Of a DNA stretch of 35,337 bases, positions 8,817 through 28,066 are shown piece after piece. The notes beneath the pieces are model-generated. The model was not told the origin of the DNA. It made no database searches and saw only the letters and a list, made by a program, of their open reading frames with translations. Source of the DNA: a virus; the IMG/VR virus record IMGVR_UViG_3300043754_000046, positions 73,981 through 109,317 of that record; one strand, given 5' to 3'. Made by a program: the position numbers and the translations under genes. Each line of letters opens with the position of its first letter. The stretch's first letter is position 1.

Positions 8817-8915
8817 TCTCCTCACCCGGATTCGAACCGGGGGCCTCCGCGCTATACCCACATCCCCGTCACGAGTATGGATAGGCGCGGTGCTCTACCG
8901 CTGAGTTATGAGGAG
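8817..8915 (-). tRNA. tRNA-like RNA with 34-nt expanded anticodon loop; no assignable anticodon
   Basis: CTCCTCA/TGAGGAG acceptor, D-arm ACTC-AGCGGTA-GAGC, CCGCG/CGCGG anticodon stem, AGGCC variable loop, CCCGG-TTCGAAT-CCGGG, A73. Confidence 0.8.
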
Positions 8916-9710: not shown

Positions 9711-9830
9711 ACCCCTCGCCCGGAGTCGAACCGGGTCCTCCCCTGTATGGCCTATTGCGAGCAGGGAGATAGGATGAGTGCAGCCCATACAGGTTATTTG
9801 GTGTTCTACCGCGTGTGGAACTCCGAGGGG
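9711..9830 (-). tRNA. tRNA-like RNA with elongated anticodon arm
   Basis: CCCCTCG/CGAGGGG, GTTC..GCGGTA-GAAC, CCTGTATGG/CCATACAGG long arm, CCCGG-TTCGACT-CCGGG. Confidence 0.75.
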
Positions 9831-13586: not shown

Positions 13587-14149
13587 GCCACGCTCCATCC
13601 GCCGCACCGCGCGCAGTCCACCTTGGCCTCGATTCCCTTGTCTGCTGCCCAGGAGACACAGTCATCCCTCTTGGACCGAGGGATCTCCTCAACGGACCAC
13701 CGTGAACCGTCGGCCAGCTCTTTCCCGTCCTCCGGCGCCATTGGGCACCAGGCCCGGTGGATACTCGCTGCCTTCAGGTACTCCGCACGCCAGCGGCGTG
13801 CGAAGACGTACACAGGGTCCGGCGCGGGACCGCCCGCCTTGGCCTCCACCACCTTCAGCGGATCCGGGTTGATCTGCAAGCGTTGGTCGGATTCGGGCTG
13901 GGAAACCTTCGGGTCGATGAGGTCGGCCAGACTCCCCGCGATGACTCGCCGAAGTACCGCTGGCGCTTCGTCGCCAGGCCACTCATTCTCGGCGTGGTCC
14001 CGCTGCTTTTCGGCGAGAGCGTGAGCGTAGGCCGACTCGAACTTCTTCATCGCCTCCAATACCTCGTCGCCACCGACAGGCATGTCCTGAGAGGCGATTC
14101 CGTAGAGCTCCTCTGCGGCGTCCTTGAGTGCCTCCTCTGCCTCGGTCAT
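13583..14149 (-). CDS. Hypothetical protein
   Basis: GGAGG RBS, ATGA overlap. Confidence 0.7.
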   Translation of the reverse strand: MTEAEEALKDAAEELYGIASQDMPVGGDEVLEAMKKFESAYAHALAEKQRDHAENEWPGDEAPAVLRRVIAGSLADLIDPKVSQPESDQRLQINPDPLKVVEAKAGGPAPDPVYVFARRWRAEYLKAASIHRAWCPMAPEDGKELADGSRWSVEEIPRSKRDDCVSWAADKGIEAKVDCARCGGWSVA

Positions 14150-14736
14150 GTCTCGTCCTCCACGGTCGCCAGCCAGCCAGCCGGAACGCTCTCGCTCCGC
14201 GCCCAGGACAGCACCTTCAGTTCCCACGCCAACGACATGCCCTCCGCCGCCCAGGCCTGCGCCTCCTGGACCTGGTCCTCCGCGAACTCATCGGTGACGT
14301 CCAGGAGCCGGTTCCCCTGGTGCAGTTGCCAGGCCCAGCCCTCGTCTTCTTCGTGGGCGTAGATGAGAGTCCAGTCGGTTCCGCCGTCGTTCTCTTCGCA
14401 GCCGTGATCACACTTGCCGGGATGGTCTGCAATGAGGAGGCATGTGGCCTCTCCCTCTCCAGTGGCTTTCCCGCAGAGCGGCGACACCTTGATCTCTCGG
14501 TGACCGTCGTCGTTCCAACGCAGGAACCAATCCACAGCGTCTGGGTCCGTGCCGTCGTACTGGCTCTGCACCGCGCGAGCATGCAGCACTTCGGGCCCAT
14601 GGGTCCCGAACTCACACGCGAACAGATCAGTGCCTGCCTCATTCTCGGCGTCGGGCAACGCGTTCATGCGCTCCGCCTCGGCGGCCGTCAGAGCCGCCTT
14701 TCCCGTACAGCCGGTTGTTGGATCCGTCAGCCCCAT
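14146..14736 (-). CDS. Acidic Cys/His hypothetical protein
   Basis: 196 aa operon ORF. Confidence 0.7.
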   Translation of the reverse strand: MGLTDPTTGCTGKAALTAAEAERMNALPDAENEAGTDLFACEFGTHGPEVLHARAVQSQYDGTDPDAVDWFLRWNDDGHREIKVSPLCGKATGEGEATCLLIADHPGKCDHGCEENDGGTDWTLIYAHEEDEGWAWQLHQGNRLLDVTDEFAEDQVQEAQAWAAEGMSLAWELKVLSWARSESVPAGWLATVEDET

Positions 14737-14981
14737 GCCTCTGCCTCCCAGACGTTCGCTTGCCCGTAACCCTGCCGCGTCACCTTGGCCGCGTCGTTCA
14801 GGAGCGTCTCCACCGTGTGCGGATCAAGGTCGGTGCGCTCCAGGTAGACGTCCCGCAGGGCCTCAAGGTCTCGCGCCACCTGCTCGCGTACTGAACGCTC
14901 AACGCCCTCGAAGTCCACACGCCACTGAGGTGGGGACGTCCTGTTCCGGAGGGAGTGGAGTACCTGCCTGGCGAAGCTCAC
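14727..14981 (-). CDS. Hypothetical protein
   Basis: GTG 14981 overlaps upstream TGA. Confidence 0.6.
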   Translation of the reverse strand: MSFARQVLHSLRNRTSPPQWRVDFEGVERSVREQVARDLEALRDVYLERTDLDPHTVETLLNDAAKVTRQGYGQANVWEAEAWG

Positions 14982-15400
14982 TGGTCTCCCTGGTCGTCGG
15001 CCGGATCCCACGTCGCCAGCGGATTGCGCTCCGTCGTCGCCCACACATGAGTAGGGCACGGGTCCGGCTCACCGCACTCGATGCACGTGCCGTCTGTCAT
15101 GCCTCCCGCACCGACATTCTTCGTGTGGGCTTCGGCGATCCGTGCCAGTCGGGCTCGCGCTTTCTTCAGCCCCTCGTCCTGGTGGGCCTCTCGGTCTGAC
15201 GCCCCGACGATGTAGTAGTCCATGGCGGCCTCGGGCAGGACGTAGATCTTCTTGCCGACCTGGAACTCCATGGTCCAAGCACCGTCGCCCTCGTTCCAGG
15301 TGATCGACCACCCCGGTTGGACGAAGGCCTCGGCCTCCCAGCGCGTCAGGACCGACTCGTACTCCTGGCGGGTCTGCTCCCGCTCCGCAGCCTCAGTCAT
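14978..15400 (-). CDS. Hypothetical protein, C-terminal CxxC-PCPT (start uncertain)
   Basis: CIECGEPDPCPT; first gene of leftward unit. Confidence 0.7.
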   Translation of the reverse strand: MTEAAEREQTRQEYESVLTRWEAEAFVQPGWSITWNEGDGAWTMEFQVGKKIYVLPEAAMDYYIVGASDREAHQDEGLKKARARLARIAEAHTKNVGAGGMTDGTCIECGEPDPCPTHVWATTERNPLATWDPADDQGDQ

Positions 15401-15849
15401 GCGCCGAGTATGCCGGTCCGCACCCCCGCCTGCACCTTTGTCCAACTCGTTTTGAATTTCCCGGTGTTACTGTCCGCTTTGCCCTAGAGGCTACCTACGT
15501 GGGCGATCAGGGGCGAATTGAATTCAAATTTCTTTTAAAGGTGGGGGGTCGGGTTTTGTCAAGCGGATTCGCAGATTTGCAGCACGTGACCTGCGCCACG
15601 CGCAAGCCGGACATCACGGGCACGGAGTGAGAGCTAACACCCGTTAGCGCTCAGCGCCGACAGGGGAAGCAAGGTGATCAGCCGCGCACACCTATGAGTG
15701 TGAGAGTGGCTGCAATGTCAAGCAAAGTGACGAGTCGTCAGTTACAGCGAGCGTTACATGATCACGCAGACCACTGCATTTGCGGGCTCGCGCCCTAGCG
15801 AATTGAGCAGTAAGCACCCGCTTAGTAATTGCACAATGAATCCACCATG

Positions 15850-15908
15850 TATTGCAGAACGGTAACGCTCAAATTGCAGCGGTATTACAACTATTGCAGA
15901 ACGGTAAC
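15850..15908. repeat. Iteron-like direct repeats
   Basis: TATTGCAGAACGGTAAC at 15850 and 15892 with a degenerate copy between (about 21-bp period). Confidence 0.65.
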
Positions 15909-16568
15909 AACGATTTAAATCACCTCAAACCAGACACAGGCCACCGCTCGCCAGCGAGCACGGGCCGACGGGGGCTCAGCCACTGGGGCTCACACTGCTC
16001 TCTCTATGACTGTCTCTACTGGGGGCAGTACGCACGCACCCTTGCCCCCGAAAAACGGCTACCGAGCCACCTGAGAGCCGCTCACACCCCTAGATGGACA
16101 GAGAGACTCACACGGCCCCCTGAGGGGCTCACAGGGGCACGCAGCCATGATCGCCAGTCGCCCCCGGAATCTCGCGCCGGACACGGCCGCAGCACCTCTC
16201 ATTACATGTCAGGACAAACGCTGTGACCTGCGTAAACATCGTTAGCTGACACACCATCACATACATGTCACGTCAAACTCGCCGACCTGCACTGATTCAT
16301 GGTTTGTCCTATTTCACAAACGTTATCGCACGTTATCGCCAGAGAGTCATGACATAGCCGGGCAACTCGCCAGTAGCGATCTACAGCACACATCACGAAA
16401 ATATAACGACTGTTCTTGCAGGTCACATGGCCCGTTTGGGGCTGAAGAGAAGATCAACCACCAGTCTCGACGCATTCACACACGTGTGGGGGCGTAGCGT
16501 CTTCCTTGCAACACCGCACGGCGCAGCAACACCCCAGCACCACCGGGGAGGCGCCGGAGCAACGCAGA

Positions 16569-16584
16569 TTGAGAACTCAACAGC
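16569..16584 (+). promoter_or_regulatory. rrn-leader boxA-like motif
   Basis: TTGAGAACTCAACAGC resembles the actinobacterial rRNA leader motif as recalled. Confidence 0.55.
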
Positions 16585-16599
16585 AGAGACGATCACCAC

Positions 16600-17275
16600 G
16601 CGCGACAGGCGCGGGTGTGTGCCCCTTATGGGGGCGCGCGTTGGTCATGGTCATGCGTCGCGCGGATTTCTCGCGCAGAGCGTCAGCACGTAGGGCGCGG
16701 AGTATGACGACGACTGGCAAGCACCTGTGTAGGCCGCGTAATCGGTTGTCTCTGCTGTAGCACGCGAGGGAGTAGCGCTCCCTCAACCTGCCCGCGCATT
16801 CGTGCACGGGTAGTTGATCACAAAGCGCTCGCGCCCATCGGTACCTGACACGGCCGATGGATTCAGTCAACCGGGACCACGCTGTGAAGCGTCGAGACTG
16901 CCCTACATAGAGAGTCAGAAGGTGCACGCGTAAGCCGTTGCCATAGAAGACGGACGCGCGTGACCTAGGGCCCTTACAGGGATGCCTAGAAGAGTTGAGG
17001 GATTGCTGTCCCTCCCCCCGCGAAATTCGATGTGGGCGGACCTACCGGCGAACGGGCGTATTGATCATGACCCTAAGCCTGATAGATCATCCCAACCCAC
17101 GGACAATCCCCCGGGCAGGAATGTGAAGCGGACAGCATGAGATCAACTATTCCCCTATTCCCCTTAGGCACACGGGAACGGGGCGGACAGTACCTAGGCG
17201 GGTTTACCCGTCGACAGTCATTCGCCCCGCTCCCGTGCTGCCACCAGTCATCAGGGCTTTCCCCTGGTGGCCGTT
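16600..17275 (+). ncRNA. Putative large structured RNA / leader
   Basis: About 10 hairpins, long-range GTAGGGC/GCCCTAC pairing, no convincing CDS. Confidence 0.45.
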
Positions 17276-17299
17276 GGTAGTCACTACAGGGGAGGAATC

Positions 17300-17866
17300 A
17301 TGGGAAAGCGATACCGCGCAGCAACGGCACCGACTCCCCTTAAAGGAACGAGCGCCGGTGTGCCGATGGGTAAAGCCACTCACACCGTTCGGGTCATGCA
17401 TCGCGAGTGTGTGACGCGTACGGCGCGCGATCACTGGAAGCTGCGGAAGCTTGCCTACGCCGTAGTGGAGTACCGGGGTACGCGTCCCGCGCGTGTCCTA
17501 TTCGCTACGGATGACGAGCGGTTCGCTCATACTTCCGCGTATCGCATGGCCAATGACTTTGACCGTAAGGGTGATCCTGCGAGCGTGCGCGAATTGCACA
17601 CGTGCCGCAAAGTCAAGGTTGTTGCGCCGAAAGCACGGCACGAACTGACTCAACAGGACTTGCACGTTGCCGACATTGACAACATGCGGGAATGCCGCGC
17701 ATGCAGTAGCCGTGACAAGTCTCGGCTGTGCAAGCCCAATCGTGCCGGAAAGACGGAACGCATGCGCGCACAGACGTCGCATCTTGCGCTTGTCTCGGCC
17801 AACAGGAGCGATGACACACCATCGGATCCCAACATCATCACGCGTTGGGCGAAAGATGACGAGTAG
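17300..17866 (+). CDS. Basic hypothetical protein, first gene of array
   Basis: AGGGGAGG RBS before ATG 17300. Confidence 0.7.
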   Translation: MGKRYRAATAPTPLKGTSAGVPMGKATHTVRVMHRECVTRTARDHWKLRKLAYAVVEYRGTRPARVLFATDDERFAHTSAYRMANDFDRKGDPASVRELHTCRKVKVVAPKARHELTQQDLHVADIDNMRECRACSSRDKSRLCKPNRAGKTERMRAQTSHLALVSANRSDDTPSDPNIITRWAKDDE

Positions 17867-17932
17867 TCGTTAGGGCGACTCTAAACCGCGTTAAGCCCTA
17901 AGCGTCTGCCCCGAAATTCGGGGCAGGGTCGC
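17865..17932 (+). ncRNA. Pistol ribozyme 1
   Basis: P1 AGTCG/CGACT, loop TTAGGG pairs with CCCTAA, TAAA linker, P2 GCG/CGC, TTAAGCCCTAAGCG core, P3, predicted cut G17928/U17929. Confidence 0.92.
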
Positions 17933-17953
17933 AACACAACCAGGGGAGACATC

Positions 17954-18145
17954 ATGATCACTGCTGAGACATATCACGGTAAGCGTGTTGTGAACTCTGT
18001 GATCACGCCACAAGTGTGCAATGACATGATCAACACGTATGAGTCCATGGGGGCCGATATCGTCTATGACACCCATGGCAAAGAGGTATGGGTGTTCGTA
18101 ACCCATGGTCCCGTCGACGTAGCCACGCTCGTTATCGGTCGTTAG
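17954..18145 (+). CDS. Hypothetical protein
   Basis: AGGGGAG RBS. Confidence 0.75.
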   Translation: MITAETYHGKRVVNSVITPQVCNDMINTYESMGADIVYDTHGKEVWVFVTHGPVDVATLVIGR

Positions 18146-18202
18146 GGCGACCTTAAACAGGCATCAAGCCCTAAGCGTCTCCCCGAAATCGGGGAGGGTT
18201 GC
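18137..18202 (+). ncRNA. Pistol ribozyme 2
   Basis: P1 GGTCG/CGACC, pseudoknot TTAGGG/CCCTAA, P2 GCA/TGC, predicted cut G18198/U18199. Confidence 0.92.
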
Positions 18203-18224
18203 ACAACCAACCAGGGGAGGAAAC

Positions 18225-18437
18225 ATGCTACCGGGGCGCACTTTCAAGCGGGTCACGGCACACATGCCCGGGGCCGGAAGCATGACAGGCCCGGTCACAT
18301 CGGATCAGTGCCGGACTATCAGGGACCTTGAAGCCATCTTCCATGGCGACGGAATGTCCATCACTCGTGAGACGAACGGCGACGCCATCGTATACACGGC
18401 GAGCATGGTGCAGATCTTTACGTATCACGTCGACTAG
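18225..18437 (+). CDS. Hypothetical protein
   Basis: AGGGGAGG RBS. Confidence 0.75.
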   Translation: MLPGRTFKRVTAHMPGAGSMTGPVTSDQCRTIRDLEAIFHGDGMSITRETNGDAIVYTASMVQIFTYHVD

Positions 18438-18495
18438 GCGACGTTAAACAGGCGTTAGGCCTAGTGCGTCGCCCCGGAAATCCGGGGCGGATCGC
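18427..18495 (+). ncRNA. Pistol ribozyme 3
   Basis: P1 ACGTCG/CGACGT, covaried pseudoknot ACTAGG/CCTAGT, P2 GCG/CGC, A18491/U18492 at cut site. Confidence 0.85.
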
Positions 18496-18520
18496 AGCAA
18501 TGCGAGAAAGGGGAGGAAAC

Positions 18521-18646
18521 ATGATCATCTGTGAAGCTTCCATGCCGCGTGCGGGTGGCGAGCGTAAGTATCACAAGGCAGTCATCCTGATTCGTATGGC
18601 CTATGCACGACAGGCTTTCTACAGCCGGTTGGCTAAGCGCGCATGA
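18521..18646 (+). CDS. 41-aa basic microprotein
   Basis: GAAAGGGGAGG RBS. Confidence 0.65.
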   Translation: MIICEASMPRAGGERKYHKAVILIRMAYARQAFYSRLAKRA

Positions 18647-18652
18647 CCACCA

Positions 18653-18701
18653 GTCCGGCAGACGGTTTCCACAGACGTAGGCGCAAAGCCACTGCCGGGC
18701 A
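18653..18701 (+). ncRNA. Mini-tRNA-like element 1
   Basis: GTCCGGCAG/CTGCCGGGC-AC; GGC-GCAAA-GCC variant T-loop. Confidence 0.55.
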
Positions 18702-18743
18702 CAAACTCCCCCGATTTTCCGGGGCGAGTGGAAAGGGGAGGAA

Positions 18744-19028
18744 ATGAGCAACGTTCGTCCGCTTCACCAGCTTCAGGCGCCTATCATTTGGCAGAACTTG
18801 CTTCCCACCATACAGGCAACAAATACGGCGTCCGGACAGGTCTTTGCCTGGCACCCGCAGTATCGGGAGGTCATTCAGGTATTCGACAGTGTTTCGGCGT
18901 TCATGTATGGCGGGCAGTCCGACCTAGTGTTGCCCTTCCCGGAGCGGCTCATCAATCCGGTGAGCGGAGTTCCGGCATTGCATCACTACGTCGAGACGAT
19001 TCGGAAGTATCAGGAACGCCCGCAGTGA
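18744..19028 (+). CDS. Hypothetical protein
   Basis: GAAAGGGGAG RBS. Confidence 0.75.
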   Translation: MSNVRPLHQLQAPIIWQNLLPTIQATNTASGQVFAWHPQYREVIQVFDSVSAFMYGGQSDLVLPFPERLINPVSGVPALHHYVETIRKYQERPQ

Positions 19029-19035
19029 TGCGACA

Positions 19036-19077
19036 GCCCCGAACGGTATTCGGCCGGTTCGACTCCGGCCCGGGGCA
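19036..19077 (+). ncRNA. Mini-tRNA-like element 2
   Basis: GCCCCG/CGGGGC-AC; GGCCGG-TTCGACT-CCGGCC. Confidence 0.8.
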
Positions 19078-19110
19078 CTGATCCGAAAGGGTCTGGAAAG
19101 GGGATAGAAC

Positions 19111-19590
19111 ATGGTGGAGATGCCCAAAGAGTTTTTGGGTCGCCCGGTTGTACGGTCCGTCCAGCACGCCACAGACGAAAGCGAAGCGCCCTACTTCGGC
19201 ACTGTCGTTCTCGACTACGGCAACGGCATTCAAACCGTCATCGACGTGTTCAGTCACGACGGTGAGGTGTGGGGCGGGCAGAATGGTGCCCATCGGATTC
19301 TGGCGGACAGTGCCGAACGGATCTTCGTGGACCGGTGCAAGCGGCGCACCCGGTTCACGCACATGGTCATGGAAGGCAAGTGCACCTGGCTTGCCGTAGC
19401 CATGATGCGCTGGGATTCCATTCCAGTATCCGGCCGTGATGAGTTCACGGTCTATGCCCGCGATGCTGCCGGTAAGGCGCGTGACTTCCTGGAGTTCTAC
19501 TACCCGGTGAACCGGGAGGTTCGGAACGCCATCGAGCGTTGGCTTATCCGGTACTCGGAAGCACACACGCATCCGGACCTGCGCTCATGA
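19111..19590 (+). CDS. Hypothetical protein
   Basis: GAAAGGGGAT RBS. Confidence 0.8.
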   Translation: MVEMPKEFLGRPVVRSVQHATDESEAPYFGTVVLDYGNGIQTVIDVFSHDGEVWGGQNGAHRILADSAERIFVDRCKRRTRFTHMVMEGKCTWLAVAMMRWDSIPVSGRDEFTVYARDAAGKARDFLEFYYPVNREVRNAIERWLIRYSEAHTHPDLRS

Positions 19591-19596
19591 GGTCCG

Positions 19597-19643
19597 GCCC
19601 GTAGCCGCGATGTTGGCGGTAGGCTTCGATGCCACTGCGGGCA
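19597..19643 (+). ncRNA. Mini-tRNA-like element 3
   Basis: GCCCGTAG/CTGCGGGC-AC; GGC-TTCGAT-GCC. Confidence 0.7.
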
Positions 19644-19678
19644 CTGGGAGTCATGCGACTCCGGCAAGGAGGGGAAAC

Positions 19679-19849
19679 ATGAACACGTGGACCGTTACCA
19701 CCTGGGCTTTCTATAACGCAGCGGAAGCTGATCCGCATTACGAGCGGCAGGAGGTTACTTTCACTGGCCTGTCCGAAGAACAAAAGGATCGAATCCTTGC
19801 GCTCTCTGACGACGGACTCAAGTTTGATGCCGAAGCCAAAGAAGAGTGA
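19679..19849 (+). CDS. Hypothetical protein (56 aa)
   Basis: AAGGAGGGG RBS. Confidence 0.7.
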   Translation: MNTWTVTTWAFYNAAEADPHYERQEVTFTGLSEEQKDRILALSDDGLKFDAEAKEE

Positions 19850-19861
19850 CCAAATCGCTCA

Positions 19862-19907
19862 GCCCTAAATGGTTTTCAGGGAGGTTCGATTCCTTCCTAG
19901 GGCACCA
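19862..19907 (+). ncRNA. Mini-tRNA-like element 4 (ACCA end)
   Basis: GCCCTA/TAGGGC-ACCA; GGGAGG-TTCGATT-CCTTCC. Confidence 0.8.
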
Positions 19908-19945
19908 TGCGTGATCCGTCACGCAGCAGCAGGAAAGGGGATGCA

Positions 19946-20173
19946 ATGCCGCACAAAGGCTCGTACACCATGGGCACGCAGGAAATGATCGAGCACATGG
20001 TGACGGAACTTCCTGACAAGTACCTGATGGAGCTAAACCAGTCCGACATGGAGACCCTGATTTGGGGTCTCGGCGCGCACGTAGGCTTTGTAACGCCAGA
20101 TGACGCCATGCAGGACCGGATTTCTTCCCTGTTCTCCAGCATCGCAGAGACGCTGGAAATCGAGGGTATCTGA
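19946..20173 (+). CDS. Acidic hypothetical protein
   Basis: GAAAGGGGAT RBS. Confidence 0.75.
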   Translation: MPHKGSYTMGTQEMIEHMVTELPDKYLMELNQSDMETLIWGLGAHVGFVTPDDAMQDRISSLFSSIAETLEIEGI

Positions 20174-20180
20174 TCCGGCA

Positions 20181-20230
20181 GTGCGCAACGGTTGCCCTTA
20201 TGGGTGAGGGTTCGATTCCCTCGACGCACA
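20181..20230 (+). ncRNA. Mini-tRNA-like element 5
   Basis: GTGCG/CGCAC-AC; two mini-hairpins; GAGGG-TTCGATT-CCCTC. Confidence 0.75.
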
Positions 20231-20269
20231 CTCACTCCCCCGAAATTCGGGTGCGAGTGGAAAGGGGAT

Positions 20270-20956
20270 ATGGAAATGGCATTGAGCACGCGTGAGCGTC
20301 GCATTCGTCGCATCCGTCGCGCACTGCCGATCATTGAGGAGCTGGAGGAGTACACCAAGCAGGTCTATTCCGACAATCTCTTCACCAGCGAGGAGGGGCA
20401 CGATGCCTCTCCTATGTGGCTTGCAACTCCCTTTTCACGATCCCGCGACGCTGAGTTGCGGGAAAAGTGCAACTGGGAAGTCGTGAGTGAGGATCTCCTC
20501 GAACGATTCCCCGACACAGTGTCGAGTCAGACGTTCGGTCACTGGGGGTTCGGCTGGTACGAGCGGCTCTACGTCCGTCGTGACGATGCGCTTGCACTCA
20601 GGGCAGTTCAGGGCTGGGTCGGCACGATCCAGGACACTGGGTTCGCCAGCGAGGAGCGTATCGATGAAGCGGAGCGCGAGGAGTACAACGAGTACCTGTC
20701 ATCGCAGCTCGGTGGGTATCCGGGCAACGATGACGACGAGTACCTCGACCGGGTCCGGCGGTACCTCTTTGAGACGCACAGCGCTGTCCGGAGCGATGAG
20801 GTCGACCAGAGCATGATCAAGGACGCCATCGCTCACGTCCCCCACCCCTACGACGACTGGCAGTGGGGTGAGGGCGAGGACGAGGACGAGCGGGAGTGTA
20901 ACTTCTGCGGTCAGTCCGAGTCAGCCGAGTGCCACAATGAGGCGGCACAGCCCTAG
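20270..20956 (+). CDS. Acidic hypothetical protein
   Basis: GAAAGGGGAT RBS; FGHWGFGWYE motif. Confidence 0.8.
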   Translation: MEMALSTRERRIRRIRRALPIIEELEEYTKQVYSDNLFTSEEGHDASPMWLATPFSRSRDAELREKCNWEVVSEDLLERFPDTVSSQTFGHWGFGWYERLYVRRDDALALRAVQGWVGTIQDTGFASEERIDEAEREEYNEYLSSQLGGYPGNDDDEYLDRVRRYLFETHSAVRSDEVDQSMIKDAIAHVPHPYDDWQWGEGEDEDERECNFCGQSESAECHNEAAQP

Positions 20957-20997
20957 GCCTGGTGGCCTGCGTCCGGGTTCGATCCCCGGATGGGGCG
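20950..20997 (+). ncRNA. Mini-tRNA-like element 6
   Basis: GCCCTA/TGGGGC-GC; GGCC-TGGT-GGCC; TCCGGG-TTCGATC-CCCGGA. Confidence 0.8.
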
Positions 20998-21043
20998 CAA
21001 GTTCGCCCGGAAATTTGGGTGAGCTGGAAGGAGGGGAAACTAA

Positions 21044-21445
21044 GTGACTAATCCGGATGACGCTATTACTCAGGCAGTGGCTACGGCTCGGAGCACTGAG
21101 ACTCCGATCAGTCACGGGGTAGCACGTGCCATTGCGATGCGATTTCAGCCCCAAGGACGTGCCCCATAAGGGCGTGCGGTATATCGCAACGCCTTGAAGG
21201 CATTCATTGCGTCAGGAGTTATGAAGTCAATTAACACCACTCCACCACGATGGAGGCCGCATCCCAGCGCTGAGCTCGATGGCGAACATGCCGTTTGGGC
21301 AGCCGTCTCCGGTGAAGGACAGTGGGTACGGGCGTCCGACGCAGAGAAGGATGTGATGGCCGTATTCGGTGACTACTTGCACAGCCGTAAGCAAGCTGGC
21401 GACCTGGATTCTGTGCCTGGCTGGACAGATCTGCCGATCGAATAA
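21044..21445 (+). pseudogene. Array gene interrupted by in-frame TAA (21167-21169)
   Basis: RBS plus GTG 21044 is in frame with ORF 21194..21445; only one stop separates them. Confidence 0.6.
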
Positions 21446-21447
21446 CA

Positions 21448-21490
21448 GCCCTAAGTGGTTCTCGGCTCGGTTCGATTCCGGGCTAGGGCA
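21448..21490 (+). ncRNA. Mini-tRNA-like element 7
   Basis: GCCCTA/TAGGGC-AC; GCTCGG-TTCGATT-CCGGGC. Confidence 0.8.
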
Positions 21491-21517
21491 CGCAGTAACT
21501 AGGAAAGGGGATATGAG

Positions 21518-21778
21518 ATGTCCGAAGAGCACATCGAAGAGGCGCACAGGCAGCAGCTCGACACGCAATATTTCGAGCCTCCTTACGATCCCATCGCAGA
21601 GATGCATGATGAGCTTCAGGAGCGCATTGACCGGCTCAGCTCAGGGTGCGATGGTCTGTTCCTGATTCTGGACACGGCCAAGCACAACGGTTGGCGTCCG
21701 AACGTCAAGGAGATCAAGGAGCACATCCGGGAGTGCCCGGAGTGCTTCCAGGTCAACTCGGATTTCTTGGACGACTGA
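21518..21778 (+). CDS. Hypothetical protein
   Basis: RBS; HxxxCxxC. Confidence 0.75.
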   Translation: MSEEHIEEAHRQQLDTQYFEPPYDPIAEMHDELQERIDRLSSGCDGLFLILDTAKHNGWRPNVKEIKEHIRECPECFQVNSDFLDD

Positions 21779-21780
21779 CA

Positions 21781-21831
21781 GCCCTAGAGAGACACCAGGT
21801 CTCCTAGTCCGGTGCAACTCCGGCTAGGGCA
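21781..21831 (+). ncRNA. Mini-tRNA-like element 8
   Basis: GCCCTAG/CTAGGGC-AC; GAGAC/GTCTC; CCGG-TGCAACT-CCGG. Confidence 0.75.
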
Positions 21832-21873
21832 CTCAATCCCCCGATTTCCGGGGTCGATTGGAAAGGGGAGGAA

Positions 21874-22164
21874 ATGACGGAAGCTGAGGTTACTCCGGCG
21901 ACTCTGGATGAATACCGGAAGATGCTGGAAGAGATCGGCCTGTTCACACGTGTCGTTGACGGCGGTATCGACGCCGTCTGGTGGCTCGGTATGCGCTCTT
22001 TCAGGCTGGCGTTCCGACGCGCCGAAAACGGCTGGTGGGAAATCCACAGCTTGAACGCATTCGAGACGCTGGACGTGATGCTGTGGTGTTCTGCGTACGC
22101 CAGCGACGACACGCGTGAATTCATCAACAACTGGGTACGCGTTCATCCGCGTGCCAAGCGCTGA
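21874..22164 (+). CDS. Hypothetical protein
   Basis: GAAAGGGGAG RBS. Confidence 0.75.
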   Translation: MTEAEVTPATLDEYRKMLEEIGLFTRVVDGGIDAVWWLGMRSFRLAFRRAENGWWEIHSLNAFETLDVMLWCSAYASDDTREFINNWVRVHPRAKR

Positions 22165-22199
22165 TGGTCGTGGGGCTGGTTCGACTCCAGCCCAGCGCA
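22158..22199 (+). ncRNA. Mini-tRNA-like element 9
   Basis: GCGCTG/CAGCGC-AC; GGCTGG-TTCGACT-CCAGCC. Confidence 0.8.
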
Positions 22200-22234
22200 C
22201 TAGCCCGATTTCGGGTGTAAGAAAGGGGAACGCA

Positions 22235-22615
22235 ATGTCCGACGACGTCCGATACCAGGGCGAGCAGATCAGCGGCTACCGGATCACCGGTGAGCACGTC
22301 CAGGAGCTCGCTAACGCATTCGGTAAAAACGTCCTCGTGGTGCAGCCCGGTACCGCATTCCTGTGGGTAATCGGCACCGGCAATAAACACTACGAGGGCG
22401 CCCGGACTGTGTACGCCACCAGTGAACAGGTTGTCGAACTGGCCGCCGAGGAGGACTACGACTCTGAGGGTGGGCTGACCATTGAGGCGGCATGGCGCAT
22501 CGCTGGCGAGATCGAGCGTGAGGGCCGTGCCGCCGCACAGGCGTCTGCTTACACGATGCCCTACTCGGACGGCTTCAGTGCGCGTGTCATGAACACCATG
22601 CACAACGATGATTAA
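22235..22615 (+). CDS. Hypothetical protein
   Basis: GAAAGGGGA RBS. Confidence 0.78.
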   Translation: MSDDVRYQGEQISGYRITGEHVQELANAFGKNVLVVQPGTAFLWVIGTGNKHYEGARTVYATSEQVVELAAEEDYDSEGGLTIEAAWRIAGEIEREGRAAAQASAYTMPYSDGFSARVMNTMHNDD

Positions 22616-22618
22616 TCA

Positions 22619-22674
22619 GTCACCCACTCCCCCGCGAAATCGGCGGGCACGGATCAGATCCGAGGGTGGGACCA
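22619..22674 (+). ncRNA. Mini-tRNA-like element 10 (degenerate, ACCA end)
   Basis: TCACCC/GGGTGG..ACCA; CGG-ATCAGAT-CCG. Confidence 0.5.
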
Positions 22675-22711
22675 TGCGGATATCCACTCCGCAGCAGGAA
22701 AGGGGAGATAG

Positions 22712-23221
22712 ATGATCGCTGAAAACCGCTCCGTGGCCTTCCTGGTCTACGTCGGCACGACGTTCGATGTGAACGGAAACCGGCGCAAGGGCTGGGTGGT
22801 CTACAACACGGACGGGGAGCGCATCGACTTCGTCCAGGAGGACGCAAGCGGCGATGGCCCGTTGCTCGAATCCGGGTACGCCGCGTTCCGCAAGATGGAC
22901 GAGTCCATCAGGATCACCGAGGAGGAGTGGGAGAACCTCTCCAACCTAGCCTCCTACCCGGCGTCGTCGCGCAAGTTCGACAATCTGTTGGCTGAGAAGC
23001 TGTGGGATTTGTCCCTCAGCAGCAACCAGGACGCCGACCTGGGCGACTCCGAGACGTTCGGCTGGTATGCGCTCTTCAAGGGTGACAGTGCCATCCTTAA
23101 CACGAACTCCCAGGGCTTCGTGTCCGTCTCGGTATTCGAGTCCGAGGAGGAGGCAGAGAAGAAGTGGGAGGAGCTGGAGAACGAGTACAGCGAGTTCTGC
23201 GGTGATGACGAGGAGGAGTAG
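22712..23221 (+). CDS. Acidic hypothetical protein
   Basis: GAAAGGGGAG RBS. Confidence 0.8.
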   Translation: MIAENRSVAFLVYVGTTFDVNGNRRKGWVVYNTDGERIDFVQEDASGDGPLLESGYAAFRKMDESIRITEEEWENLSNLASYPASSRKFDNLLAEKLWDLSLSSNQDADLGDSETFGWYALFKGDSAILNTNSQGFVSVSVFESEEEAEKKWEELENEYSEFCGDDEEE

Positions 23222-23230
23222 TCCTCGTCA

Positions 23231-23274
23231 GCCTGTCTGAGTAAGACTCCGCCGGTTCGTGACCGGGACAGGCA
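23231..23274 (+). ncRNA. Mini-tRNA-like element 11
   Basis: GCCTGTC/GACAGGC-AC; CCGG-TTCGTGA-CCGG. Confidence 0.75.
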
Positions 23275-23311
23275 CTAGCCCCGAATTTCGGGGTGAGGAA
23301 AGGGGATAGCA

Positions 23312-23563
23312 ATGACCGAATGCATGAATGGCTATGACGGCACAATCCGGCACCGTGAGTACACGGAAGCCATGTACCGGGTGCAGACGTCGGAAGCTTT
23401 CGCACAATCCACCTGGTGCCCGGACTGCCTGATTCAGTACGTCGAGTCCGGCATGGGGTCGTGTGTCGAGTACGTGGGGCTCCTGGAGCCGCTGAAGACT
23501 CAGGAGGACCGCGACAAGCACGACAAGGTTTTGGGACTCGGCCTCAACGTCGAACAGCCCTGA
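23312..23563 (+). CDS. Hypothetical protein
   Basis: RBS; WCPDC. Confidence 0.75.
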   Translation: MTECMNGYDGTIRHREYTEAMYRVQTSEAFAQSTWCPDCLIQYVESGMGSCVEYVGLLEPLKTQEDRDKHDKVLGLGLNVEQP

Positions 23564-23602
23564 TCTGGTGATCTCGCCGGGGTCCGATTCCCCGGCTGGG
23601 CA
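23557..23602 (+). ncRNA. Mini-tRNA-like element 12
   Basis: GCCC/GGGC-AC; GATC-TGGT-GATC; GCCGGGG-TCCGATT-CCCCGGC. Confidence 0.8.
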
Positions 23603-23639
23603 CGAGCCCGATTTTCGGGTGAAGGAAAGGGGAGGAAAT

Positions 23640-23864
23640 ATGTATCACCCTGACATGGGTACGCTCGCCCAGTTCGTTGGTGAGCAGCCCTACGAGTCTC
23701 CCGCTTTCGTTCCTGGTGTGGATTTCGATCCTTGGGATCCGGAAGAAGTGGAAATCGTCGGACTGGCAACGGAAATCCACCGACACGACAAGATGCGGCG
23801 TCTTGAAGAAGAGAACTCTCGTCTCCGGGCGCGACTTGCCGAACTGACCGACGGCAACGAGTAA
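23640..23864 (+). CDS. Hypothetical protein with coiled-coil tail
   Basis: RBS; RRLEEENSRLRARLAEL. Confidence 0.75.
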   Translation: MYHPDMGTLAQFVGEQPYESPAFVPGVDFDPWDPEEVEIVGLATEIHRHDKMRRLEEENSRLRARLAELTDGNE

Positions 23865-23883
23865 CGCGAACATGGTCTAAGCA

Positions 23884-23925
23884 GCCCCGTATTGGCTGAA
23901 CACGGTTCGAATCCGTGGCGGGGCA
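23884..23925 (+). ncRNA. Mini-tRNA-like element 13
   Basis: GCCCCGT/GCGGGGC-AC; CACGG-TTCGAAT-CCGTG. Confidence 0.8.
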
Positions 23926-23964
23926 CTTTGTGCTGCCCGAAAACGGGAGCACATGAGGGGAGGA

Positions 23965-24195
23965 ATGATGGAGGGATTCATTCACGATTCGATGACGTTC
24001 AAGGTCAGACTACTGACCTCGTGCTGTTCGACATGCGCAGAGCTCATCGAGATCATGTTCGTGCCTGCGGAGTTCGCTCCGTTCATGCCGGACGTACCGA
24101 CGTACCGCGCGGCCGAGGCTCAGCGCGGGGAGTGGGACCAGGAGCACGCCAGGGAGTGCAAGCAGTCACGCCCTTGGCACCTCACAGCGGTGTGA
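23965..24195 (+). CDS. Hypothetical protein
   Basis: GAGGGGAGG RBS. Confidence 0.7.
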   Translation: MMEGFIHDSMTFKVRLLTSCCSTCAELIEIMFVPAEFAPFMPDVPTYRAAEAQRGEWDQEHARECKQSRPWHLTAV

Positions 24196-24200
24196 CCGCA

Positions 24201-24253
24201 GCCCTGATCCGCATCCGAGGCGGACGGCCGGTGCGAGTCCGGCCAGGGCACCA
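24201..24253 (+). ncRNA. Mini-tRNA-like element 14 (ACCA end)
   Basis: GCCCTG/CAGGGC-ACCA; TCCGC/GCGGA; GCCGG-TGCGAGT-CCGGC. Confidence 0.8.
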
Positions 24254-24294
24254 TGCGTCCCTGTTGGGCGCAGCAGCAGGAAAGGGGAGAGCAC

Positions 24295-24696
24295 ATGGGC
24301 AAGTACGTGGTCGTTCTCGATGAGAAGGACGAGCCCACCCAGGAAGACACTGCGTCCCACATCTTCGGTGCGATCCCGCACACCTATGACTGGTGGCGGG
24401 GGATCACGGAGCACTGGGACACGCAGGACGCTCCCGACGGGTGGACAGCGACGATCCGCGTCACCGACCCGGAGGACGAGAACGAAGAGCGGACGATCGT
24501 CAAGACGATCACCCACACCGACCTCATGGACGCGATGCGGAAGATCATCAGCGGTGAGATCGGCGAGGATGTGACCGACTCGTGCAAGGGCGCGTGCCGG
24601 GACTTCGTCTTCAACCGCGACGCGGCCGACTTCGACGCGGCCACCTCCGACGAGGTACTCCAGGTCGCGGTACTCGGAAAGGTCGTCTACTGCTGA
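24295..24696 (+). CDS. Acidic phage protein
   Basis: RBS; DFDAATSDEVLQVAVLGKVVY tail. Confidence 0.8.
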   Translation: MGKYVVVLDEKDEPTQEDTASHIFGAIPHTYDWWRGITEHWDTQDAPDGWTATIRVTDPEDENEERTIVKTITHTDLMDAMRKIISGEIGEDVTDSCKGACRDFVFNRDAADFDAATSDEVLQVAVLGKVVYC

Positions 24697-24702
24697 GTGC
24701 CA

Positions 24703-24756
24703 GCCCAGCGAGGGCCCCGGATTCCGGGGCGACGGGTGCGAGTCCCGTCCTGGGCG
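24703..24756 (+). ncRNA. Mini-tRNA-like element 15
   Basis: GCCCAG/CTGGGC-GC; GACGGG-TGCGAGT-CCCGTC. Confidence 0.8.
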
Positions 24757-24820
24757 CTAGGACCCCTGACTGTCGGCGGGTCCTACTAGGCTGCGGCCTA
24801 GTGAGCAAAGGGGATAGAAC

Positions 24821-25147
24821 ATGAGTGAGGACAGGACACCGCCCGGCATGTACTACGCGGGCTCCAAGCATGGCATGGGCCTGGCCACGCACAACGTCGC
24901 GGTCTGGTTGGAGAACGAGCCGGGCCTCCTGGAACGGGCGCGTGAGATCGTCGCCAAGGGTGGTGACGACCTGCTCCGGCAGTGGGTGACGTTCCTGTGG
25001 TACGGAGCCCCGGAAGGCGGCTTCAATCTGAACGACGAGCCCAAGCACGACAGTCGGATCGTCTTGAACCTCAAGACAGACACCGACCGGGACGCCTTCC
25101 GAAGGATCGACTGGCAGTACGTACGCGAGTCCGTGAACGCCGAGTAA
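24821..25147 (+). CDS. Hypothetical protein
   Basis: AAAGGGGAT RBS; similar motifs to 25745..25999. Confidence 0.78.
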   Translation: MSEDRTPPGMYYAGSKHGMGLATHNVAVWLENEPGLLERAREIVAKGGDDLLRQWVTFLWYGAPEGGFNLNDEPKHDSRIVLNLKTDTDRDAFRRIDWQYVRESVNAE

Positions 25148-25149
25148 CA

Positions 25150-25197
25150 ACCCCAGGTCTGGTGACCTCCTTCCCGGTTCAATTCCGGGATGGGGTA
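25150..25197 (+). ncRNA. Mini-tRNA-like element 16
   Basis: ACCCCA/TGGGGT-AC; GGTC-TGGT-GACC; TCCCGG-TTCAATT-CCGGGA. Confidence 0.8.
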
Positions 25198-25242
25198 CTG
25201 GGCAGTCCGGAGCCCGAAATCCGGAAATGGAAAGGGGAGGGC

Positions 25243-25647
25243 ATGTATCAGATAGTGAAGGAGCGTCCGGGCCTCCCGGTCGTGGATGACTGCACTCGGG
25301 ACGACTTCAACCAGGTAGGTCACTGCGGTGAGTACAAGGGTGTCGTCGTCGGCAAGTGCGGTCGTTGCTGGGACTGCCACGCGATCAAGAACGACCCTGA
25401 TCAGCTGAGGACGGAAGAGAAGACCGCGTCCGAGGTACAAGAGGAGGACTGTTTGGTCTTCCCTGAGGACGACGGCCGCATTGAGGTGTTCAAGGTGAAG
25501 ACCATCGACACCTTCCCCGGCCGGTTCATGGCGGACCTGGACGCTTCCGAGGAACCTGGTGCCAAGTGGTACCGGTTTAGCTGCCATGGTGGTCCGGTCG
25601 CGGCAAGAAACATGGACGACAAGGTTCTGATTATCACCAGAACATGA
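25243..25647 (+). CDS. Hypothetical protein
   Basis: RBS; CxxCxxC. Confidence 0.78.
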   Translation: MYQIVKERPGLPVVDDCTRDDFNQVGHCGEYKGVVVGKCGRCWDCHAIKNDPDQLRTEEKTASEVQEEDCLVFPEDDGRIEVFKVKTIDTFPGRFMADLDASEEPGAKWYRFSCHGGPVAARNMDDKVLIITRT

Positions 25648-25654
25648 CGTCTTA

Positions 25655-25708
25655 CCCCGAAATCCGTATAGGCGGATACACCCGAGTTCGAGTCTCGGGC
25701 GGGGACCA
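25655..25708 (+). ncRNA. Mini-tRNA-like element 17 (ACCA end)
   Basis: CCCCG/CGGGG-ACCA; ATCCG/CGGAT; CCCGAG-TTCGAGT-CTCGGG. Confidence 0.78.
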
Positions 25709-25744
25709 TGCGGAGATATCCGCAGTAGTTGGAAAGGGGACGCA

Positions 25745-25999
25745 ATGAGCGATGAGGGATACAACGGCTACACGAACTGGGCAACCTGGTTCGTCGTTTC
25801 CGAGCTGGAGAACAACGCGGAATGGTACAAGCTGACGCAGAGACTCGTGCGTACCGAGGCGCCTGCCGAGGAGTTCAAGAAACTCGCGAAAACGTGCCTG
25901 TTCCCCTCCGCCGACGTCACCTCCTACGGCGAGATGGGCCGCAGCAACTTCGAGGACGTCAACTTCGAGGAAATCCGCGACACTCTCCTCAACAACTAG
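25745..25999 (+). CDS. Phage protein with YNGxTNWATW motif
   Basis: RBS; YNGYTNWATW..VNFEEI. Confidence 0.8.
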   Translation: MSDEGYNGYTNWATWFVVSELENNAEWYKLTQRLVRTEAPAEEFKKLAKTCLFPSADVTSYGEMGRSNFEDVNFEEIRDTLLNN

Positions 26000-26015
26000 T
26001 CGGCCAGGAGACAAA

Positions 26016-26222
26016 ATGACCGATCACTTCGAGCCCGGCACACGTGTCCGCGCCGAGGAAACCGGCGAGATCCCCGAGCAGTTCGGCTACGTGGATCGGG
26101 ATCACGGTGGTGCCGTCGTGCACATCTTTTTCGACGGGCAGGATACGAGGTACCCACACAATGCCACACCTGTTCCCCGTGAACAGGTGCACGCAGTAGT
26201 CGAGGAAGACGAGGAAGACTGA
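26016..26222 (+). CDS. Hypothetical protein
   Basis: AGGAG RBS. Confidence 0.7.
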   Translation: MTDHFEPGTRVRAEETGEIPEQFGYVDRDHGGAVVHIFFDGQDTRYPHNATPVPREQVHAVVEEDEED

Positions 26223-26229
26223 CCTGCAA

Positions 26230-26276
26230 CCCCGGCCGTAATCACGCGGCTCCCATGTGCAATGCATGGGCGGGGG
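26230..26276 (+). ncRNA. Mini-tRNA-like element 18
   Basis: CCCCG/CGGGG-GC; GCCG/CGGC; CCCATG-TGCAATG-CATGGG. Confidence 0.65.
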
Positions 26277-26329
26277 CTGGGCTGATCCGATGCCCTGAAA
26301 ATCGGATACCAGAAAGGGGAGTACTGGTT

Positions 26330-27028
26330 TTGCCTGTCTTCTATGTCTACGTCCACAACGGCGAGGCGTACTCCACAGACGATATGGAGTGCTCACCCAG
26401 TGCCGCAGTCGTGAAACGAGAGTTCGCTTCACGCGTGCGATCCGGTAAGGGAAAATCCTGCTACGTCTTGGATCTGGATGAAATAACTCCCGAGACGGTG
26501 AGGAAAACCTCCGAAGAGGAAGCATGGCCGGAGGCATCGGACCGCGCCTGCATGGTGGTGTGGCGGACTCAAAAATGGGAGACGCCCACTGGTCATCCGG
26601 ATGAGATGTGGCTCTTCAGCGGAAATGTTGACAGACCCACGATCATTCCGGCGGAGATTCCCGAGATAAAGCCGGTCCCGACGTCCGACATGCGTGTCTC
26701 GAAGGACGTATTCCAGCGTCGCGTGAATATGGGATGGGACCCTGAGCGGGCTCGCACGACGCCTCTCGGTAACAGGGCGGGCAGTGTGCAAGGGAAGTTC
26801 ACCCCCAGCCTTCGTCATGCTGACCATCAAGTCGATGACACATCCGTCAGGCTCACGGCTGGGATGGCCCCCGAGGTTTTCACCGCCTTTGGGATGACTC
26901 GGTCGATTGCTGAGTGGAAGGATCTGACGGGGATCAGCGAGAACGCGCTGAGAGTCGGAGCCAGGAAGCACGGCATGGAGGGATACCTCAAGAAGAAGCA
27001 GTGGCATCCCCGCTGGGGGAAGCCGTAG
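26330..27028 (+). CDS. Putative DNA-binding protein (HNH-associated HTH-like repeats)
   Basis: TTG start after GAAAGGGGAG; FQRRVNMGWDPERARTTP and AFGMTRSIAEWKDLTGISENALR. Confidence 0.7.
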   Translation: MPVFYVYVHNGEAYSTDDMECSPSAAVVKREFASRVRSGKGKSCYVLDLDEITPETVRKTSEEEAWPEASDRACMVVWRTQKWETPTGHPDEMWLFSGNVDRPTIIPAEIPEIKPVPTSDMRVSKDVFQRRVNMGWDPERARTTPLGNRAGSVQGKFTPSLRHADHQVDDTSVRLTAGMAPEVFTAFGMTRSIAEWKDLTGISENALRVGARKHGMEGYLKKKQWHPRWGKP

Positions 27029-27035
27029 GACCAAA

Positions 27036-27080
27036 GTCCCGCTAGGTGCGGAAGGAGCGCTGCAAATGCGCTCCGGGACA
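27036..27080 (+). ncRNA. Mini-tRNA-like element 19
   Basis: GTCCC/GGGAC-AC; GGAGCGC-TGCAAAT-GCGCTCC. Confidence 0.75.
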
Positions 27081-27122
27081 CGAACTCCCTCGAAATTCGG
27101 GTGGAGTTGGAAAGGGGAGATC

Positions 27123-27533
27123 ATGTACACCGTTGAGAACTGGCGCACTGCGTACGACGAGGTTGAGGGCAACGGCTTCGACCCGATCGACTCTGAGGAG
27201 TCGGCTGGAGCCATGGGCGCTGCCCTGGCCGAGGCCTACGACAAGCTCAAGACCGATGAGTACGCGGTCCTCGCCGCACTCGAAGCCGCAAACCAGCAGT
27301 TCCCGGACGGCTGGGACGTCGACCAGTTCAACAAGGTCGTGGACGGCTTCACGGTCCGCTACGACGACATGAACGAGCCCGTACAGAACTACCTCGATGA
27401 CAACTACCCCGGGGTGCAGATTGAGTGGCTCAAGGACGACGCTCCGGTCTGGGATGGGCCCGTAAGGGACTCCGAGGTGTGGATCGATGACACCGAGATC
27501 CCGGGGATCTACGTCTTCAACAAGGTGCGGTAG
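27123..27533 (+). CDS. Very acidic protein, possibly ArdA-like
   Basis: RBS; D/E-rich; ends GIYVFNK (function tentative). Confidence 0.7.
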   Translation: MYTVENWRTAYDEVEGNGFDPIDSEESAGAMGAALAEAYDKLKTDEYAVLAALEAANQQFPDGWDVDQFNKVVDGFTVRYDDMNEPVQNYLDDNYPGVQIEWLKDDAPVWDGPVRDSEVWIDDTEIPGIYVFNKVR

Positions 27534-27537
27534 GACA

Positions 27538-27578
27538 GCGTGGATGGTCGCAGGGGAGGTCCGACTCCTCCCCCACGC
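27538..27578 (+). ncRNA. Mini-tRNA-like element 20
   Basis: GCGTGG/CCACGC-AC; GGAGG-TCCGACT-CCTCC. Confidence 0.78.
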
Positions 27579-27614
27579 ACAAGCCCGAAGTTCGGGTGAG
27601 GAAAGGGGACAGTT

Positions 27615-27974
27615 ATGGGCACCATGGACATCACACCTGTCACGGACCAGAGGTACCCGCTCAAGATGTGGGCCATCAACCTCGGCATGTGGGAGGTCAC
27701 GGAGGAGAACTGGCCCGAGTTCTTCGTGCGGATCCGCCTGTACGAGGAGCTGGCAGGTGCTCCGATGCTTCAGAACGCGGACACCAATGAGCCGGTCACC
27801 ATCACGCCGGAGCTGGCCAAGCAGCACATCGGGTGCAGCATCGGCGACAAGATGGAGAAGCGCGACGAGTGGTGGCTCCGCATCATGCACCGTCGCGCGC
27901 GGTCGTTGGAGTACGAGGCCCGGGAGTTCGACAGCAGTGTCTTCCCCGTCGCCGAGGACGACGACGAGCTTTAG
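27615..27974 (+). CDS. Hypothetical protein
   Basis: GAAAGGGGA RBS. Confidence 0.8.
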   Translation: MGTMDITPVTDQRYPLKMWAINLGMWEVTEENWPEFFVRIRLYEELAGAPMLQNADTNEPVTITPELAKQHIGCSIGDKMEKRDEWWLRIMHRRARSLEYEAREFDSSVFPVAEDDDEL

Positions 27975-27981
27975 CAAGGCA

Positions 27982-28025: not shown

Positions 28026-28066
28026 CGCAATATCGGCCCCGAAATCCGGGGCGGAAAGGGGAGGAA

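Follow-up and report, generated by a model that had tools for sequence, protein, structure and literature searches.

Tandem pistol ribozymes and transfer RNA-like minihelices in the spacers of a Streptomyces phage gene array: candidate modules for the punctuation of a polycistronic message

In animal and plant mitochondria, transfer RNA (tRNA) shapes located between coding regions (tRNA punctuation, or t-elements) are thought to recruit ribonuclease (RNase) P and RNase Z. Self-cleaving ribozymes have been described between phage genes: Perreault et al. reported in 2011 that several hammerhead ribozymes flank single genes in prophages, that ~2-kb transcripts were cleaved in vitro, and proposed that such elements process single-gene messages (PMC3088659). 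The pistol class (RF02679; env25 structure 5K7C), described in 2015 (Weinberg 2015; Harris 2015, PMC4604425), often occurs close to phage genes, chiefly in Firmicutes and environmental DNA, and its function is not established (PMC4604425). Here, we analyze a stretch of 35,337 nucleotides (nt), referred to as the window, that makes up the final 35 kb (positions 73,981 to 109,317) of a 109,317-bp IMG/VR virus record, IMGVR_UViG_3300043754_000046, and carries three tandem pistols followed by a long series of tRNA-like elements in the spacers of one gene array. The ribozyme class itself and ribozyme-punctuated prophage operons (since 2011) are already known; the new aspect is a single array that mixes three pistols with ~30 minihelices and has relatives with hammerheads or hairpins in their place, in a host genus that can be cultivated. 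We found no papers describing either the punctuation of phage messages by tRNA-like elements or ribozymes of Streptomyces phages.

The array begins at position 17300 and consists of ~35 small plus-strand genes in succession, running to the end of the contig, each with a strong GGAAAGGGGA-type ribosome-binding site and mostly separated by spacers of 70–124 nt. Scanning the whole window against Rfam (cmscan) returned exactly three matches above the gathering score, all to the Pistol model RF02679 (gathering score 34.5), all on the plus strand, and all spanning model positions 1–68. Pistol 1 (17865–17933; 62.4 bits, E = 3e-9), pistol 2 (18137–18203; 70.2 bits, E = 5e-11), and pistol 3 (18428–18496; 68.5 bits, E = 1e-10) occupy spacers 1, 2, and 3, which are 87, 79, and 83 nt long, respectively; their scores are roughly double the gathering value. 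No pistol was found on the minus strand or elsewhere in the 109-kb genome, and a laxer Rfam scan of 14–30 kb added nothing relevant.

The three copies share the architecture of the described class, with the same P1, pseudoknot, P2, and P3 elements, core residues, and 2-nt cleavage junction, and a similar association with phage genes. In each copy, P1 is combined with a 6-bp pseudoknot, a TAAAC linker, P2, a core of the form ..R-G-CC..-GCG-T, P3, and a P3–P2 junction of exactly 2 nt. The pseudoknot reads TTAGGG/CCCTAA in copies 1 and 2 and ACTAGG/CCTAGT in copy 3, so that four of the six pairs are altered on both strands in a compensatory manner, and all six pairs are standard in every copy. 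Copies 1 and 2 presumably share both their pseudoknot and the AAGCCCTAAGCG core with env25. The critical core of the class comprises purine-32, the G33–C41 pair, G40, and G42, with an A32G change retaining near wild-type activity (PMC6154101). All of these residues are present here together with the AAA linker: purine-32 is A, A, and G in copies 1 to 3, and the equivalents of the general base G40 are G17902, G18175, and G18466. The predicted cuts lie at G17928/T17929, G18198/T18199, and A18491/T18492; because a GU dinucleotide at the pistol cut is only modestly conserved, the strict feature being the 2-nt length of the junction (Harris et al., PMC4604425), the A/U cut of copy 3 falls within natural variation. 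The pistol architecture of spacers 1–3, the compensated pseudoknot of copy 3, and its AU cleavage site had all been proposed in a preliminary description made from the sequence alone, and all three proposals are borne out by these results. The window pistols differ from those reported previously in belonging to a Streptomyces phage of 62% guanine plus cytosine (GC) content, with relatives in Streptomyces chromosomes, in a P3 that includes the CCCCGAAATTCGGGG-type hairpin of the array itself, and in the A/U cut of copy 3.

We examined covariation in an alignment (A4) of 15 pistols, i.e., the three from the window, five from relatives, and seven from unrelated phages. Standard pairing occupies 91.7% of cells, versus 71.3% in shuffles and 34–50% in slid registers, and 15 of 24 pairs, among them all six of the pseudoknot, have changed on both sides; in the pseudoknot, 96.7% of cells are paired. 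Columns 19–21 (AAA), 32 (G), and 39–41 (GCG) do not vary, and column 31 reads A, A, and G in copies 1 to 3. The sequencing runs listed for the region are four from soil DNA, with no RNA run among them, and contigs from other strains cover it in part only. In one variant strain (run X3, another soil metagenome), pistol 1 carries two changes that keep the structure, namely, 17916 A>T, within the P3 loop, and 17925 A>G, which turns a P3 A-U pair into G.U. The three elements are thus confirmed as genuine new members of the pistol class; they are predicted to be catalytically competent, and the intact core and the covariation argue for self-cleavage.

Spacer 4 opens the second part of the array, in which the elements resemble tRNAs stripped of their D and anticodon arms; after them come a small hairpin and a ribosome-binding site. 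The first of these (18653–18701, plus strand), upstream of gene E, is a variant minihelix identified by its fold, with a GGC-GCAAA-GCC arm; the first canonical acceptor/T-arm minihelix (19036–19077, plus strand), between genes E and F, has 12 stacked pairs, a TTCGACT loop, and discriminator A. We built a covariance model, R1, from six clean minihelix copies and ran a descriptor scan alongside; the canonical element was found by the descriptor scan and scores 57.4 bits with R1. The model matched the plus strand 18 times, always in array spacers and never in a pistol spacer, in agreement with the earlier reading that mini-tRNAs fill the array from spacer 4 onward. The spacer 4 variant, missed by R1, recurs almost unchanged in relatives, with near-identical copies upstream of gene E in L077 (988–1091) and upstream of gene F in L083 (9904–10001), and the junction between genes E and F carries a minihelix in the window, L077, and L081. 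Overall, ~30 junctions have tRNA-like minihelices versus three with pistols. On the minus strand, R1 gave only two partial matches, isolated T-arm-like pieces at 8825–8841 and 9718–9738, where the preliminary description had seen aberrant cloverleaves.

The minihelices have the features of the minihelix form recognized by RNase P, namely, ~12 stacked acceptor and T-arm pairs, a 7-nt T loop, and an unpaired discriminator. Since neither canonical tRNA genes (by ARAGORN) nor a phage-encoded RNase P RNA were found in the 109-kb genome, these elements are not decoding tRNAs and would depend on a host enzyme, and they may be cut by RNase P or RNase Z. They resemble mitochondrial tRNA punctuation in keeping the 12-bp acceptor/T stack recognized by RNase P and differ from it in being phage-encoded, in having no D and anticodon arms, and in being mixed with self-cleaving ribozymes; cutting at the phage elements, moreover, is putative. 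A subclass of minihelices encodes the discriminator plus CCA, followed by a UGCG...CGCA hairpin and then GCAG (window 19901–19935, 24248–24285, and 25705–25735; L074:5930–5960; L075:3950–3985; L081:10530–10560). An encoded CCA is bound by bacterial RNase P and blocks RNase Z, and the CCA-ending subclass hints at two processing routes among minihelices. In an unrelated phage with 47% GC, a tRNA-like 3' end (GTTCGACTC...GGGGTGCA) lies ~8 nt upstream of a pistol (L006:2057–2162, plus strand), showing that a tRNA-type element and a pistol can share one spacer in tandem.

In the window, no spacer contains a pistol and a minihelix together, and both element types follow the same grammar, i.e., stop codon, element, leader, Shine–Dalgarno (SD) sequence, and start codon. 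The pistols overlap the preceding stop codon by 2–10 nt and are predicted to cut 25, 26, and 29 nt ahead of the next ATG (at 17954, 18225, and 18521, respectively), within the 25–30 nt initially estimated. The minihelices start past the stop codon and finish short of the next start codon, at median distances of 7 and 41 nt, respectively. Judged by these positions relative to stop and start codons, the geometries of the two spacer types are alike. We found no terminator-like site on the plus strand between 17.3 and 26 kb, which gives indirect support to the view that the array is probably transcribed as one long polycistronic plus-strand RNA. A hairpin of the CCCCG-AAAT-CGGGG type forms the apical P3 of the pistols (17906–17926, 18178–18196, and 18469–18489) and is also found 3' of most minihelices (e.g., 20236–20252 and 22203–22216); it is hence carried by every spacer and could be a protein-binding or stabilizing element in its own right.

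The pistols separate four consecutive genes and lie on the coding strand, as do the ribozymes of the operons described by Perreault et al. in 2011, so that both systems place several coding-strand ribozymes between single small phage genes. Unlike in those prophages, the ribozyme here is the pistol and is restricted to the first one to three junctions, the other ~30 junctions being filled by tRNA-like minihelices, although related Streptomyces arrays (L084, L085, and L091) do combine pistols with type II hammerheads.

Comparison with related arrays shows which spacers are fixed and which are not. The first array gene, gene A (17300–17866, plus strand, 188 amino acids, from open reading frame (ORF) and SD calls), has homologues P0002–P0006, P0014, and L081_8405, all of which are followed by a pistol; altogether, a pistol begins at the gene A stop codon in all eight of the lineages for which this junction is available (the window, L074, L075/76, L077, L078, L079, L080, and L081), at protein identities of 45–63%. 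This constancy bears on the idea that the pistols are neutral passengers, i.e., insertions, selfish or decaying, that do nothing for the phage. For no system has a biological function of pistols been proven (PMC4604425), which leaves room for such an idea, but a position kept in all eight lineages, intact cores, covarying helices, and structure-preserving strain variants already disfavor it, and we consider it highly improbable.

Past the gene A junction, the number of pistols varies among arrays: one in L074, L077, L078, and L080, two in L075 and L083, and three in the window and L081. At the second junction past gene A, the window and L081 carry a pistol, and L074, L075, L077, L078, and L080 carry a minihelix. 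Mixed arrays of pistols and minihelices were found in nine related contigs or genomes, with the minihelices located farther along. When species genomes were scanned by pattern, three further Streptomyces genomes (L084, L085, and L091) were identified in which at least one pistol of the same subtype opens the array and type II hammerheads follow at nearly every later junction. In L085, one pistol is followed by eight consecutive type II hammerheads, at seven junctions between called genes and once past the last gene, and in L091 a pistol, three hammerheads, and a minihelix lie on a single strand.

The type of element also changes around homologous genes. For instance, L081_9410 is preceded by a pistol, whereas its homologues L074_6350 and L080_11951 are preceded by CCA-ending minihelices. 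L084_7299 is flanked by hammerheads, whereas the homologous window gene g22712 and L081_12666 (pairwise E = 9e-12 and 2e-13, respectively) are flanked by minihelices. The gene F orthologue in L082 (66% identity) has long plain hairpins, not minihelices, on both sides, and L084_6533, next to hammerheads, is 49% identical to L082_11168, next to hairpins. Throughout the L082 array (L082:8646–11817), all spacers hold long GC-rich hairpins with recurrent GGACGGGAGCGCC... arms, and no pistol, hammerhead, or minihelix was found there; these hairpins may be a fourth module type or simply stabilizers. These changes around homologous genes indicate that the slot between genes can be occupied by any of four kinds of structured RNA; two of these belong to classes proven to cut themselves. 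The interchangeability of pistols and mini-tRNAs proposed in the preliminary description thereby gains comparative support, including an exchange of a pistol for a minihelix next to homologous genes (L081_9410 versus L074_6350 and L080_11951).

The exchange also helps to weigh the possibility that the elements are mainly cassette joints at the DNA level, where similar 70-nt sequences would promote recombination and gene shuffling among phages, RNA cleavage being secondary. Genes turn over rapidly between conserved elements, with ORFans in the window and other genes in every relative; the three pistols are 77–84% identical to each other, and a tyrosine recombinase gene lies within the array (31231–32205), as a joint of this kind might lead one to expect. 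However, a DNA joint needs neither the compensatory changes that keep the helices and pseudoknot nor invariant catalytic residues, and the same slot accepts module types of unrelated sequence, so we consider this explanation improbable. Tandem duplication of gene-plus-ribozyme cassettes was considered as a separate origin for the three copies and was rejected, as the proteins flanking the pistols have no mutual similarity; since the flanking genes are unrelated to each other, the pistols have been maintained independently of gene duplication.

The assignment of the elements to the pistol family, their positions and conservation, and the changes of module type next to homologous genes are observed, and on this basis we favor the punctuation of messenger RNA (mRNA) by exchangeable modules as the probable working mechanism. 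Each pistol, beginning on the stop codon of a small gene, would cleave itself 25–29 nt before the next start codon; the upstream message would keep the compact pistol body at its 3' end, terminated by a 2',3'-cyclic phosphate, and the downstream message would start with a 5'-OH and a short leader carrying the strong ribosome-binding site. The minihelices would do the same job through host RNase P and a 3' processing enzyme, and the modules (pistol, type II hammerhead, acceptor/T-arm minihelix, and long hairpin) would together divide the array into single-gene messages. Cleavage at the pistols in vivo, cleavage at the minihelices, and an effect on message stability and translation are the steps we infer. 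A more specific version, in which all four element types (the minihelices being anticodon-less) are exchangeable modules of one mRNA-punctuation system in a lineage of Streptomyces phages and prophages, the self-cleaving ribozymes stand in, without need of the host, for sites of RNase P and perhaps also of RNase III, and the pistols are reserved for promoter-proximal junctions, seems to us about evenly balanced between right and wrong.

Several observations weigh against this interpretation. The pistol after gene A is fixed in all eight lineages, implying that the elements are not freely interchangeable. Pistols are always promoter-proximal, restricted to the first junctions of every array, which may have a position-specific reason such as immediate processing that does not depend on the host. 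The genes between the window pistols are ORFans, so there is no strictly orthologous swap for these three copies, and the swap documented in relatives does not extend to them. The plain hairpins of L082 need not be cut sites. The CCCCGAAATTCGGGG-type hairpin is placed differently in the two spacer types, preceding the cut in pistols, where it forms P3, but following the minihelix in later spacers, which makes the spacer types not strictly congruent. The precedent of glmS in Bacillus indicates that a 5'-OH end can attract RNase J, an enzyme that Streptomyces has, so that cleavage could destabilize rather than protect the product. A hairpin of the form UCGCA-loop-UGCGA that would sit at this end occurs directly past the cut in 8 of 14 clade pistols, including window copy 3, but it is absent after window pistols 1 and 2. 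The copy 3 hairpin (TCGCA-GCAA-TGCGA, 18492–18505, plus strand), which re-uses the 3' strand of P2, has a predicted fold of −6.2 kcal/mol in the 3' product and would lie at the extreme 5' end of the cleaved downstream RNA.

The placement of the stop codons raises a further alternative, namely, that cleavage is a regulatory or decay switch. The gene A stop (TAG, 17864–17866) overlaps the first 2 nt of pistol 1, in P1, and the TAG stops of the next two genes lie in the P1 loop/pseudoknot strand of pistol 2 (18143–18145) and in the pseudoknot strand of pistol 3 (18435–18437). A ribosome terminating at a stop inside P1 or the pseudoknot strand would disrupt the folded ribozyme, so that cutting would report on translation of the upstream gene, and the 5'-OH product would pass to RNase J, tuning the promoter-proximal genes. 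The confinement of pistols to the first junctions would fit such a switch, as would the variable presence of the 5' hairpin past the cut, which suggests that the products differ in stability. Yet the stop in most relatives overlaps only the first 2 nt of P1, minihelices or hammerheads occupying the same slots around homologous genes point to a generic role, and pistol cleavage in vitro, at ~10 per min (PMC4604425), is fast enough to act before ribosomes arrive. We regard a switch as unlikely, if slightly less so than the DNA joint, and retain message punctuation as the preferred interpretation.

If punctuation is correct, it would answer the long-open question of what small phage ribozymes do, i.e., make single-gene messages. 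The array is a natural comparison of junction types, with the pattern expected if all of them simply mark sites at which a transcript is cut, and it extends pistols to high-GC actinobacterial phages. Arrays are carried by the cultivable strains S. luteogriseus, S. tubercidicus, and S. diastatochromogenes ATCC 21481, making experiments feasible, and compact insulators, both host-independent and host-dependent, would be useful parts for operon engineering in Streptomyces.

Gene A has no relatives in Pfam or the ESM Atlas, and the homologues described above came solely from Logan/NCBI protein look-ups. Their alignment (A5) reveals invariant residues H28, H34, C37, C102, C132, C135, and C144, which suggests that the protein binds metal. 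The two genes between the pistols are ORFans on the plus strand: one of 63 amino acids (17954–18145), with no homologue in the relatives, and one of 70 amino acids (18225–18437), which matched only itself among 1.84 billion representatives. The gene downstream of pistol 3 (18521–18646, plus strand, from an ORF call) encodes 41 amino acids; it was considered as a member of the 'LNPxDW' family, also of 41 amino acids and found in L074, L080, and L081, and rejected as not related.

The phage is a Streptomyces myovirus. Genes for a tail sheath, a portal, and a family-A DNA polymerase are present in its genome, and the portal shares ~57% identity with its counterparts in Streptomyces phages BRock, GiJojo, pSt2308, Alone3, and LuckySocke, none of which carries a pistol. 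BRock has ~35 true tRNAs and no minihelix array, its weak matches to the minihelix model falling on these genuine tRNA genes; the matches in GiJojo are likewise only weak, so that a minihelix array appears to be absent there. Closer relatives of the array were found only among Logan contigs and stretches of Streptomyces assemblies. Neither 7.9 kb of the array nor pistol 1 matched any GenBank phage by blastn, no locus related to genes A and F was found in IMG/VR or the JGI metagenomes, and a DNA pattern search combining T loop and SD returned only unrelated phages.

Homologues of genes A and F occur in S. tubercidicus, S. luteogriseus, and several soil contigs, which places the host in the genus Streptomyces and some of the arrays in chromosomes. 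The genes next to chromosomal and metagenomic arrays indicate that the arrays are part of integrated elements in Streptomyces genomes. A trio of HATPase_c_2, HTH_31-DUF5753, and DUF397 genes, typical Streptomyces regulators, adjoins the arrays (L081:600–2730, L083:1950–3723, and L080:2415–3890), and the L080 array lies near an IS605 OrfB/TnpB-like gene. No match to 16S ribosomal RNA (rRNA) was found in the window, whether 14000–30000 (leader included) was scanned at the laxer threshold or the entire window at gathering level. In related Streptomyces arrays, the non-coding leader upstream of the first pistol matches the 5' domain of 16S rRNA (~101–347), with 130 bits in L085 (2422–2640, plus strand), 75 bits in L091 (4527–4682, minus strand), and 32 bits, below gathering, in L080 (9356–9392, plus strand).

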